From Ignisphaera sp. (GTDB lineage: Archaea > Thermoproteota > Thermoprotei_A > Sulfolobales > Ignisphaeraceae), in the NCBI GenBank assembly GCA_038821645.1, contig JAWBDT010000013.1, positions 1 to 55,611 of the forward strand: a stretch of 55,611 bases of DNA. The letters run 5' to 3'. The translations under genes and the position numbers were made by a program. Positions 19,597 to 36,991 of this stretch are shown in pieces (within the stretch, counting starts at the first letter, position 1; every line of letters starts with the position of its first letter). A model generated the notes under the pieces. It made no database searches and was not told where the DNA came from. It saw only the letters and a program-made list of their open reading frames with translations.

Positions 19597-19706
19597 GCGG
19601 GGGTGCCCGAGCTCGGCCAAAGGGGGCGGGCTCAAGTATTTTATCGCTTGATGTGGGAGAGACCCGCTGGCGTAGGCCTGCGTGGGTTCAAATCCCACCC
19701 CCCGCA
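19597..19706 (+). tRNA. tRNA-Leu(CAA) with ~25-nt intron (about 19637-19661, position 37/38)
   Basis: GCGGGGG...CCCCCGCA, long variable arm, GCGGG CT CAA G [intron] A CCCGC. Confidence 0.93.
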
Positions 19707-20571: not shown

Positions 20572-22076
<1,505 letters not shown>

Positions 22077-22085
22077 AACAGGGCA

Positions 22086-22136
22086 TGCGGTAGCGTACTG
22101 CGTGAAGTTCTGGATTGCGAACATCCTAGTGAGATC
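22086..22136 (+). other. 3' arm of 16S processing stem
   Basis: Reverse complement of 20500-20549 with BHB. Confidence 0.9.
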
Positions 22137-22190
22137 TAGAACCCCATGGATCTGGGGTTCTAGATTGATTGCGTGAGTGTTATACAATGA

Positions 22191-22228
22191 GCGCTATGCA
22201 GACCCAGCGTAAACCAGCCCCGCCTCAT
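22191..22228 (+). other. 5' arm of 23S processing stem with BHB (pairs with about 25311-25348)
   Basis: GCGT/ACGC helix with AAA and ATT bulges. Confidence 0.88.
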
Positions 22229-22230
22229 GT

Positions 22231-25308
<3,078 letters not shown>

Positions 25309-25360
25309 TTATGGGGCGGGGCTGGACGCATTTGGGTCTGCATAGCGTGAGTAGGGATCT

Positions 25361-30667: not shown

Positions 30668-31234
30668 CTACAACTTAATCCACTTAAAAACTATATAACG
30701 TATATTGTTGTCATCTCTATCCACGATAGCTAGTACAGAGTGCTTCCTTACACTATGGCTAACTCTACCAAGAGCTACTATATCTGTAGGCTTGATTTTG
30801 TGTTCTTTAGCTACAACAGTAATAACATAAGGTGCATGTTCGTATCCTGGTCCCACAGTATATACAGTAAAATCTGCTCCATATTTAGTTCCACCTCTTA
30901 TTATATAGTTACGATCCCTTAGATATTCATAAACACGATATTTAACATCAAAATCATGTGAAACACTTTTACAGAAATCCCATAGCTTATTACAGTCGAT
31001 GGACTCACCATTGATATTTACCTCAGCTAAACCCTTTTTACAGAGATAGAGAGTTTCATACATAGATAAAACTAGAGGTTCTTGATAGCTTTGATCAATC
31101 TTGGGTTTCGAAATAGATAACGGTTTGCCATAGAACTGCTTAAACAAGGTATTGCTCTGAATTTTATCTAATACTAAAGATTTCCTACCAACAACATCTA
31201 TCTTAGCTATGTAGTTCTTATCGTATATAGCCAT
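30668..31234 (-). CDS. endA: tRNA-splicing endonuclease, catalytic (alpha) subunit
   Basis: Catalytic Y/H/K in KYGADF.VY..GPGYEHAPY...RVSHSVRK; FYGKPLSISKPK loop. Confidence 0.93.
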   Translation of the reverse strand: MAIYDKNYIAKIDVVGRKSLVLDKIQSNTLFKQFYGKPLSISKPKIDQSYQEPLVLSMYETLYLCKKGLAEVNINGESIDCNKLWDFCKSVSHDFDVKYRVYEYLRDRNYIIRGGTKYGADFTVYTVGPGYEHAPYVITVVAKEHKIKPTDIVALGRVSHSVRKHSVLAIVDRDDNNIRYIVFKWIKL

Positions 31235-34749: not shown

Positions 34750-35688
34750 ATGTATTCCAAGATGTATTTAACTGACATAGAATCTGGAGAAGCATTTTTA
34801 GGTTTTAATAAGAATAAGAATGAGACGCCATTTACAATCTTGGGCATTCCTTTAGATATGTCTTCATCGTTCAGAGGTGGATGTGGTATAGCGCCAAGAA
34901 GGATTAGATTTGTATCTAGATCACTAGAGTTGTGTTCAACAATGACTGGAATAGATGTAGAGTCTATAGGATTTGAGGACGTAGGTGATGTAGTATTGTC
35001 TCCAGGTGATATGCAGAGTTCATTGAAAAGAATAGAGTATGTGGTAAGAGAACTTCTCAAAGATAAAGATAGGATACTAATAGCTATTGGTGGTGAACAC
35101 ACAATAACTCTACCCATTTTCAAGAGTCTAGCTTCAGAAAGATCACAGTGCCTGGTTGTATTAGATGCACATGCAGACCTAAGAGATGAATATCTAGGAT
35201 CAAGATATAATCATGCTACAGTAATTAGAAGAACTATTGAAGAAACCAAGAGCAGGATAATACTGATAGGTGCTAGAGCTCTAAGTAGAGAAGAGATAGA
35301 AGCATATCATCAGCTGAAGGAGTATATAACCATCATTAGGGTATGGCAAGGAAATATCCATTCAAATATAGAGAAAGAACTACTACATGAGTTAGAGAGT
35401 TGTAGCAGGTTACACATATCGATAGATATGGATATACTTGATCCAACATACGCACCTGGTGTACAAACACCAGAACCCTTAGGACTGGATCCAGCTACAC
35501 TACTCAAAATACTGTCACTAGTTGCTAACAATAGGGTACGTGTAATCGATTTAGTAGAGGTATCGCCTATATATGATCAATCAGATGTAACATCATTTCT
35601 TGCAGCAAAAATAATCATAGAATTAACAGCAACAATATACAAAAATATTTATGGAGATAGAGCAGAAAAGTATATGTGTAGGATATAG
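34750..35688 (+). CDS. speB: Agmatinase
   Basis: GGEH, DAHAD, SIDMD..DP..APG..TPE, VEVSP. Confidence 0.9.
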   Translation: MYSKMYLTDIESGEAFLGFNKNKNETPFTILGIPLDMSSSFRGGCGIAPRRIRFVSRSLELCSTMTGIDVESIGFEDVGDVVLSPGDMQSSLKRIEYVVRELLKDKDRILIAIGGEHTITLPIFKSLASERSQCLVVLDAHADLRDEYLGSRYNHATVIRRTIEETKSRIILIGARALSREEIEAYHQLKEYITIIRVWQGNIHSNIEKELLHELESCSRLHISIDMDILDPTYAPGVQTPEPLGLDPATLLKILSLVANNRVRVIDLVEVSPIYDQSDVTSFLAAKIIIELTATIYKNIYGDRAEKYMCRI

Positions 35689-35693
35689 AAATA

Positions 35694-35923
35694 TGGTAGC
35701 CGGGCGGGGATTCGAACCCCGGTCACGGGGGCTCTTCTCTTAACCGCCGCCACCCAGGCAGAGCTAAGCATTATCAGTATAGGTTGATAGGTATTTAAGT
35801 TTTCATAGATCTTCTAAAGATGTAGAGTTATTCTGAATCAATATATTGAATAAGAACAATTTTGTGTGGGTGGCGGCGGTTAGATCCAAAGCCCCGCATC
35901 CTTGGCCGCTAGACGACCCGGCT
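35694..35923 (-). tRNA. tRNA-Gln(TTG) interrupted at 37/38 by 154 nt (35732-35885); candidate split tRNA (5' half 35886-35923, 3' half 35694-35731 incl. CCA)
   Basis: AGCCGGG...CTTTGG | CCCCCGTG...CCCGGCTACCA; BHB CUUU/GAAG; 16-bp complementary flanks 35741-56 and 35867-82. Confidence 0.93.
35792..35804 (-). promoter_or_regulatory. BRE/TATA inside the tRNA-Gln intervening sequence (putative promoter for the 3' half)
   Basis: Minus strand GAAAACTTAAATA, ~35 nt upstream of the 3' complementary leader. Confidence 0.7.
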
Positions 35924-35953
35924 ACTTCAGGAGATAATTTATTGTTAGCTAAG

Positions 35954-35966
35954 GTTAAAAACTTTT
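35954..35966 (-). promoter_or_regulatory. BRE/TATA for tRNA-Gln 5' half
   Basis: Minus strand AAAAGTTTTTAAC ~30 nt upstream of tRNA position 1. Confidence 0.65.
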
Positions 35967-36043
35967 GTAGTTAGTGATAGCTTAGAGAGGATTATAGAAA
36001 AATTTATAAGCTTTTCGCTCAAAGATTTAAGAGGTAGACTCTT

Positions 36044-36991
36044 ATGGTAATAAGACCTTCAGAACCTTCTCCAGAAGATATTGTTTCGAGATGTCCTAGC
36101 GGTAATATTGTGTATGATGAAATTAGTGGTGAATGGATTTGTGCAGATAGTGGTGAAGTTATTTCCGAACATGTTATTGATAGAGGACCAGAATGGCGTG
36201 CTTTTACTGCAGAAGAGAAGGAGAGGAGAAGTCGTGCTGGAAGCCCTATTAATATAGCTCTACAAGATAGTGGGCTATCGACCATTATAGATTGGTATGA
36301 TAGAGATGCATCAAGTAGGAAGCTAGATCTCAAGAGAAGACTCGAACTCATTAGGATAAGAAGATGGCATAGTAGGACAAGGATCCAGAGTGCTGTAAGT
36401 AGAAATATCTTGCAGGCTCTAAATGAGCTTGAGAGAGTGGCAGAACAACTCAATTTACCTAGGTTTGTAAAAGAGGAAGCTGCAATAATATATAGAAGAG
36501 CCATAGAGAGAGAACTTGTACGTGGAAGAGCGATAGAGAGTATGGTTGCAGCAGCACTTTATGCTGCTTGCAGAATACATGGTGTACCTAGAACTCTTGA
36601 TGAGATTTCAAAATATACAAAGAGTAGTAGGAAGGATATTGCTAGATGTTACAGACTTCTTGTGAGAGAATTAAGCCTCAAGATACCTATTGTAGATGCT
36701 ACAGAATATGCTCAAAGAATAGCATCAATGCTGGGTCTTAGTGGAGCTACAGCAAAACTTGCAGTAGATATTATCCAGAAGGCTAGGGAACTAGGTATAA
36801 CAGCAGGCAGAGATCCTGCAGGAATTGCAGCTGCCTCAGTATATATAGCGGCTCTTATAAATGATGAGAGAAGAACACAGAAAGAAGTTGCAGCAGCTGC
36901 AGGTGTAACTGAGGTAACAGTCAGAAATAGATATAAAGAACTTACAAAGGTGTTGAACACTCTCAAGATAAATAGTGAGGAAGAGACATAA
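36044..36991 (+). CDS. tfb: Transcription initiation factor B
   Basis: [11 protein letters not shown]-reader, two cyclin repeats, [22 protein letters not shown]. Confidence 0.96.

Follow-up and report, generated by a model that had tools for sequence, protein, structure and literature searches.

Here we describe a tRNA-Gln(UUG) gene of the archaeon Ignisphaera sp. that is probably split into two adjacent halves. The gene lies on the minus strand of contig JAWBDT010000013.1 (assembly GCA_038821645.1), which was analysed as one window of 55,611 nucleotides. Its exons are separated by a spacer of 154 nt that contains a predicted promoter of its own. With reasonable but not strong confidence we read the locus as an adjacent-halves split tRNA gene similar to the tRNA-Asp of Aeropyrum, with two predicted transcripts. 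A split interpretation had been proposed in an earlier note on this DNA, and it is partly supported by the analysis.

Split tRNA genes are central to the debate over whether tRNAs were first built from two halves or were divided at a later stage. To our knowledge, few 'recently split' tRNAs with adjacent halves are known and only one of them has RNA proof. The tRNA-Gln(UUG) locus would add a new isoacceptor and a new genus to this class and bears on the origin of split genes. It belongs to a graded natural series of spacers at one syntenic site, between an arginase-family gene and a TFB gene. The endonuclease-bearing versions of tRNA-Gln make the route from an intron or mobile insert to a split gene directly testable in hot-spring Ignisphaera.

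The interrupted gene and its splice junction

The two exons are colinear on one strand, with a bulge-helix-bulge (BHB) motif at the junction. The features of the locus, in the direction of transcription, are listed below; BRE is the B recognition element, the BHB sides were read by hand, and slashes within bulges mark the cuts.

35965-35952, minus: upstream BRE/TATA AAAGTTTTTAACCT, 9.9 bits, starting 42 nt before the mature 5' end
35923-35886, minus: 5' exon of tRNA-Gln(UUG), 38 nt, positions 1-37, anticodon UUG at 35889-35887
35891-35883, minus: 5' side of the BHB, with CUUU at 35891-35888, the bulge GG/A and then UC of the 3-bp UCU/AGA helix
35885-35732, minus: spacer of 154 nt between the exons
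35882-35867, minus: 5' strand of the perfect 16-bp GC clamp, TAACCGCCGCCACCCA
35859-35849, minus: T-rich tract TTGTTCTTATT, 8/11 T, possible weak terminator of the 5' half
35803-35790, minus (sense): internal BRE/TATA AAAACTTAAATACC, 11.8 bits, candidate promoter of the 3' half
35770-35765, minus: predicted start of the 3' half, about 35769, placed by the usual TATA-to-start spacing, roughly 12 nt before the 3' clamp
35756-35741, minus: 3' strand of the clamp, TGGGTGGCGGCGGTTA
35740-35731, minus: 3' side of the BHB, with AGA, GAAG at 35737-35734 and the bulge AG/C
35731-35694, minus: 3' exon of tRNA-Gln(UUG), positions 38-73 and the encoded CCA

The splice sites fall between 35886 and 35885 on the 5' side and between 35732 and 35731 on the 3' side, which gives cleavage at 37/38. 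By hand reading the junction is a canonical 3-4-3 hBHBh'. The central 4-bp helix pairs C32-U35 (35891-35888) with GAAG (35737-35734), and it is followed by the 3-nt bulges, the 3-bp helix and the clamp. The anticodon stem is CGGGG/CCCCG. The earlier note had described these exons, 154 nt apart, together with the perfect clamp and a BHB at 37/38, and all were found as described. The GAAGAG/C junction is also present in orthologues with short introns. The precursor folds at -87.4 kcal/mol (z = -5.95), and none of 200 shuffles is as good. The minimum free energy structure given by ViennaRNA adopts a neighbouring 4-bp register without the 3' bulge; acceptor stem, anticodon stem and clamp are all retained in it.

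An essential tRNA gene thus escapes the standard tRNA finders in these genomes. It is undetected by default ARAGORN and by Rfam at the gathering threshold, and also by Rfam at E values up to 10 on positions 35400-36300. The RF00005 model has 42 matches across the whole genome, and the locus is not among them. When introns are allowed, ARAGORN finds a gene with the same ends, c[35694,35923], but puts the intron in the wrong place and wrongly names the isotype Leu.

The Ignisphaera assembly comprises 31 contigs and 1.57 Mb, with a completeness of 97.8% and a GC content of 35%. Searching it with the 351-nt locus returned only the locus itself and the two exons of a Gln(CUG) gene, and a repeat or transposon copy was rejected on this result. 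The Gln(CUG) gene lies on contig C5 and has a 21-nt intron; its exons equal those of Gln(UUG) except for the first anticodon base. In this 97.8%-complete genome no other Gln(UUG) gene was found. Of the Gln codons in 644 long open frames, 62% are CAA.

Contigs with an identical spacer were found in sequencing runs from two studies; a third has a variant form. Two metagenome contigs of the Joint Genome Institute (JGI) carry the two spacer forms. An assembly artefact is excluded by the identical contigs of the two studies together with the two JGI contigs. DNA-contig joints that skip about 147-155 nt were seen in four runs; the exons are common to many community members, the joints are not assignable, and they were left unused. 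Nothing was drawn from a hole over the spacer in run X11.

A sister species of the same genus (G004) has an orthologous gene with a 155-nt spacer, 86% identical over the 351-nt query. The 5' exon is identical at 38/38 positions and the 3' exon without CCA (35731-35697) at 35/35. The BHB and clamp strands are identical at 18/19 and 23/25 positions. The sole change in the clamp is compensatory, 35872 C->U with 35751 G->A (G004, run X6). A further change, 35737 G->A, turns U35-G into U35-A and keeps the pairing of the central BHB helix. On this comparative evidence the gene is needed and under selection, because it is the sole Gln(UUG) copy in a genome that uses mostly CAA, its exons are identical to those of G004, and the changes preserve pairing.

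These data bear on a decaying, non-functional tRNA gene that was broken by an insertion. In favour of this reading, the standard finders miss the gene, and the spacer is gained relative to intronless genes at the locus in close relatives. The perfect exons, the maintained BHB and clamp and the status as sole Gln(UUG) gene argue against decay, even though a second copy could lie in a gap of the 97.8% assembly. We consider decay very improbable.

It is equally improbable that the spacer is kept long by a small RNA with a function, such as the C/D box guides of euryarchaeal tRNA-Trp introns. A CUGA motif is found at 35778-35775. However, the permissive Rfam scan of 35400-36300 gave seven weak matches and no C/D family in the spacer on the gene strand. 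No C box is visible; the sole C-box-like stretch, TGATTCA, is not conserved in G004. A C/D box RNA in the spacer was rejected on the scan and on the unconserved TGATTCA.

Predicted promoters and the likeness to a split tRNA-Asp

Promoters were scored with a 14-column matrix that was derived by expectation-maximisation from the 70 nt upstream of 42 Rfam tRNA genes, with this locus excluded. The consensus is AAAGCTTAAAAACC, and the start is mostly 37-59 nt before the mature 5' end. In silico, each half has its own predicted promoter, of 9.9 bits before the 5' half and 11.8 bits within the spacer. Both had been proposed in the earlier note, at 35966-35954 and 35804-35792, and both are real matches to the matrix (35965-35952 and 35803-35790).

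The internal site scores above 34 of the 42 training promoters and above the upstream site of its own gene. Scores of 11.8 bits or more have a frequency of 4.4e-5 per genome position. When the 110-nt core was shuffled by dinucleotides, this score was reached anywhere in 16/2000 shuffles and at 30-50 nt before the clamp in 4/2000. The site starts 47 nt before the 3' clamp here and 44 nt before it in G004. Its BRE points to the 3' half, because no antisense match in the whole spacer is above 5.3 bits.

In the alignment with G004 the internal site reads as an island of conservation amid diverged neighbours. It is identical at 14/14 positions, with 42/67 (63%) between the 5' clamp and the site and 25/33 between the site and the 3' clamp. 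The upstream promoter is identical at 13/14.

We propose the following mechanism. The upstream promoter would drive a transcript of the 5' half with a trailer that holds the 5' clamp strand, and this transcript would end within the spacer. The internal BRE/TATA would start a second transcript near 35769, in which a short leader precedes the 3' clamp strand and the 3' half. Base pairing in the 16-bp clamp, the acceptor stem and the anticodon stem would bring the two RNAs together and so form the BHB at 37/38. The splicing endonuclease would then cut the BHB and the RtcB ligase would join the halves. The predicted half dimer is calculated to be stable at 85-95 C (ddG -19.1 and -15.4 kcal/mol). 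A transcript that continued from the first promoter across the spacer would be a 230-nt precursor with the same substrate fold, and splicing in cis therefore probably takes place alongside splicing in trans, as in the tRNA-Asp of A. pernix.

The gene for EndA, the catalytic subunit of the tRNA splicing endonuclease, is in the same window about 5 kb from the tRNA-Gln gene (30698-30952, minus; Pfam tRNA_int_endo 97 bits in a 191-aa frame). An RtcB gene is present in the genome. The locus is flanked by two plus-strand genes, one of the arginase family at 34750-35688 and one for TFB at 36044-36991.

The closest known counterpart in architecture is the tRNA-Asp(GUC) of A. pernix. According to the accessible text of its description (Chan, Cozen and Lowe 2011, PMC3218864), the 'intron' of the gene measures 121 nt and has a canonical BHB, a GC stem of 14 bp and a BRE/TATA at mid-length, and transcription starts 20-25 nt short of the intron's 3' end. 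Two half transcripts were seen by northern blot and a rare read-through product by reverse-transcription PCR (PMC3218864). The resemblance suggested in the earlier note holds, since the canonical BHB, the GC stem and the mid-spacer BRE/TATA are all present here. Both genes have their halves on one strand with a gap of a little more than 100 nt, join them at 37/38 through a canonical hBHBh', and have a GC-rich stem after the BHB (14 bp there, 16 bp here). A strong mid-spacer BRE/TATA places the start shortly before the 3' complementary region in both. Each genome has one such gene, which was first annotated as having a very long intron. They differ in isoacceptor and genus, Gln UUG of Ignisphaera here, and in spacer length, 154 versus 121 nt. 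A further difference is that here the tRNA-Gln family has been hit repeatedly across the order.

Long spacers in related genomes and their possible origin

The survey covered 41 relatives and a pattern search of 325 genomes of the order, the latter restricted to spacers of 140-170 nt. Genes for tRNA-Gln (UUG and CUG) with spacers of 145-761 nt were found in at least 10 of the 325 genomes, the present genome (G000) and G004 included; the true number may be higher, since the search took in only some spacer lengths. The single independent splitting event suggested earlier does not hold, given this distribution. The other long-spacer genes are the following.

G009, same genus: UUG, spacer 175 nt
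G014, same genus and same syntenic locus: CUG, spacer 761 nt
G040, another family (f7): CUG, spacer 755 nt
G127, another family (f10): CUG, spacer 167 nt
G108, G110 and G111, genus g34 (loci L021-L023): UUG, spacers 145-169 nt
G317, family f7 as G040: UUG, spacer 667 nt

All of the long spacers have a clamp of 12-25 bp adjoining the BHB. By blastn, similarity among them is found only within G000/G004 and within L021/L022, and tblastx of the G014 against the G040 spacer reached E = 0.41 at best. Over the entire spacer, the top sense match scores 12.4 bits in G009, 10.1 in G014, 12.5 in G040 and 14.2 in G127 on the matrix from G000. These four matches start 34-36 nt before the 3' clamp, and shuffles that equal them as placed number 2, 14, 2 and 0 of 2000, respectively. 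Comparison across these genomes indicates that the internal promoter is supported beyond chance, conserved and recurrent in other lineages.

Two of the long spacers contain remnants or copies of endonuclease frames. The spacer of G317 (L080:1175-1914, minus strand of the locus) is inserted at 37/38 and has a 25-bp clamp. It holds an open antisense frame of 146 aa that matches Hom_end at 30.3 bits (cut-off 21.1) and LAGLIDADG_3 at 27.2 bits (22.5), and the first LAGLIDADG motif is in another frame just upstream of it. G040 (L007:766-1520) has an antisense frame with two LAGLIDADG motifs and two in-frame stops; it matches LAGLIDADG_3 at 19.1 bits (E = 0.0016), below the cut-off of 22.5. The G040 fragment gave one irrelevant match among PDB sequences, at E = 0.45. 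None of the six frames of the G014 spacer has an endonuclease match.

The chief alternative to the split gene is an ordinary long cis-spliced intron. In that case one transcript would be made, the clamp would join the BHB strands, the intron would be excised and the internal TATA would be silent, either a chance occurrence or a relic of a mobile element. We regard this as possible but unlikely, and several observations in its favour also weigh against the split gene. Only 154 nt lie between the colinear halves, and a continuous precursor also folds well into the spliceable substrate, so that the clamp is not diagnostic. There is no T5 run after the 5' half here, only TTGTTCTTATT, which is not conserved in G004, where a T5 run lies about 55 nt further on. 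The lack of a conserved terminator in the two sequences is the weak point of the split gene. The conservation of the promoter comes from two haplotypes (G000 and G004), each re-found once in metagenomes. Half transcripts are proven in A. pernix and are predicted from the sequence here.

Not all of the relatives fit the pattern equally well. The g34 trio scores only 0.0-7.4 bits on the matrix, which was trained on G000; two of the three have a CTTTATAAAG box 45 nt before the clamp. The best site of G317 reaches 7.5 bits, 40 nt before the clamp. The site of G014 is palindromic and scores higher in the antisense direction (14.4 versus 10.1 bits). In G317 and G040 the equivalent region is just upstream of the antisense endonuclease frame, which starts near this end of the spacer. 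TATA boxes there could have begun as promoters of the mobile element's own gene, and this could explain a leftover TATA in an ordinary intron.

The question of termination is tempered by the rest of the genome. A T5 run within 30 nt of the 3' end is found in 3/43 tRNA genes, and the median longest T run is 3. Because T5 is so rare in tRNA trailers, terminators are generally weak here and the absence of T5 is uninformative. The U-rich stretch that the earlier note placed after the 5' half is present (8/11 T, a content that 3.5% of random windows and 9% of tRNA trailers attain) and is not conserved in G004. A TTTTT run directly follows the 5' clamp in G009 and G014, and CT-rich tracts follow it in G040, L021 and L022.

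Other evidence weighs against a cis intron. The spacer of 154 nt exceeds the range of 11-129 nt (median 15) that the accessible text of the 2011 survey gives for archaeal tRNA introns, and the sole intron above 100 nt without a C/D box RNA in that text turned out to be split (PMC3218864). The site scores 11.8 bits in the sense direction and at most 5.3 bits antisense, the wrong way round for a relic of an antisense gene's promoter. It is perfectly conserved amid diverged neighbours, and an equal promoter placement recurs in four other lineages.

The history of the spacer can be followed at the syntenic site. The arginase-family and TFB flanks are also found around tRNA-Gln in G004, G015, G014, G017, G020, G023, G030 and G040, and the spacers at the site measure 0, 14, 16, 18, 24, 37, 154/155, 755 and 761 nt. 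The three closest Ignisphaera metagenome-assembled genomes (89% TFB identity) have an intronless Gln gene at the site, read as UUG in two of them. Other such Ignisphaera genomes, surveyed through the TFB gene, have 0, 14, 16, 18, 24 or 37 nt. Since the closest relatives are intronless at the locus, comparison identifies the 154-nt spacer as a gain in the lineage of G000 and G004. In G030 (L019) the intron is a 37-nt hairpin, and its stem equals the clamp found in the congener G040, whose spacer has 755 nt; the shared stem indicates that the large spacer of G040 was formed when DNA was inserted into a short intron's loop.

The anticodon also varies at this site. The syntenic TFB-adjacent tRNA-Gln locus (L001, L002, L008, L010, L012, L020, L029-L051) reads as UUG in some genomes and as CUG in others. 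This variation, and the fact that the Gln genes of G000 differ only in the first anticodon base, point to a switch of anticodon or to gene conversion between the two.

Archaeal rRNA genes are known to contain BHB introns with LAGLIDADG homing endonucleases, such as the 23S intron of Desulfurococcus mobilis (I-DmoI). The spacers of G317 (667 nt) and G040 (755 nt) are similar in being BHB-bounded and in having LAGLIDADG domains. They differ in that the host is a tRNA gene and the endonuclease frame is antisense to it. General background to such introns is given in the accessible text of PMC6125680. An endonuclease-bearing archaeal tRNA intron was not found among the listed literature matches, which left subscription journals and supplementary files outside.

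The BHB-bounded LAGLIDADG spacers suggest that tRNA-Gln spacers spread as mobile inserts. The 154-nt spacer may itself derive from a mobile BHB-bounded insert of the type that carries an endonuclease gene in two relatives. It has no stop-free frame of 35 codons or more. Its origin from a mobile cassette is hypothetical, because it holds no frame and has no detectable similarity to the endonuclease-bearing spacers of G317 and G040.

A broader scenario is speculative and rather doubtful. A mobile BHB cassette, with antisense LAGLIDADG frames in some copies, would repeatedly invade tRNA-Gln exactly at 37/38 in Ignisphaera and related Desulfurococcales-type archaea. It would bring both a clamp and a sense promoter and so split the gene in one step, and the 154-nt spacer would be a miniaturised survivor. 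If true, the cassette would be a concrete and still active mechanism for the origin of split tRNA genes.

Other known systems and further tRNA observations

A split tRNA-Gln(UUG) was reportedly described in Nanoarchaeum equitans by Randau et al. in 2005. In the accessible parts of two lists of split tRNAs, Gln is given only for this species, where it is joined at 32/33 (PMC4390854, PMC4090602). That gene is of the same isoacceptor and also has two halves, GC-rich complementary leader and trailer sequences and a BHB (PMC3218864, PMC4390854). However, its halves are tens of kb apart on opposite strands and join at 32/33, while those of Ignisphaera are adjacent, on the same strand and joined at 37/38. 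Among the listed literature matches there was no split or long-spacer tRNA-Gln from this group, again with subscription journals and supplementary files outside; the earlier note, too, had treated such a gene as not known to have been described.

The tRNA-Lys(CUU) of Staphylothermus marinus and S. hellenicus had also been offered as a parallel, and here the likeness is partial. It is from the same Desulfurococcales-type group and, in the accessible text, has a canonical BHB, a perfect 13-nt trans pairing and a compensatory change between its two species (PMC3218864). The canonical BHB and the trans pairing are shared with tRNA-Gln(UUG). The arrangement is not, as about 4.8 kb with intervening genes separates the halves of tRNA-Lys, which are joined at 30/31 (PMC3218864).

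The tRNA-Thr(GGU) of Caldiarchaeum subterraneum is disrupted by a mobile element (Sugahara et al. 2012, PMC3293823, accessible text). It provides a similar model of fast intron gain and splitting through the insertion of mobile DNA. There a 1.8-kb recombinase-bearing insert scatters the fragments, whereas here the spacers are short and precisely bounded at 37/38 and the halves are kept together.

Several other tRNA genes and fragments were observed. An intron-containing tRNA of 110 nt (19597-19706, plus; Rfam 40.8 bits) is missed by default ARAGORN. Its neighbours on the two sides are tRNA-Ile and tRNA-Ala; the 16S-23S operon (20572-25315) lies downstream, and the 23S match in it spans 3092 nt against a model of 2987 positions. 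A tRNA-like gene at C3:63373-63529 (plus) has good acceptor, D and T arms and contains about 80 additional nt. It is missed by Rfam, and ARAGORN calls it Phe with a 70-nt intron, a tentative reading of its anticodon and intron.

Two tRNA 3' parts abut open frames on small contigs, at C25:10615-10650 and C27:9330-9395 (minus). One of them is Glu(UUC)-like from about position 27, and a complete Glu(UUC) gene was not found in the assembly. They were rejected as split halves because they adjoin open frames on small contigs, and probably represent copies of the attachment sites of integrating elements. A conserved C/D-box-like sequence, ATGATGA...CAGAGGGT, immediately follows the other tRNA-Gln locus, at about 11990-12010 of contig C5 and in L004 and L015-L018.

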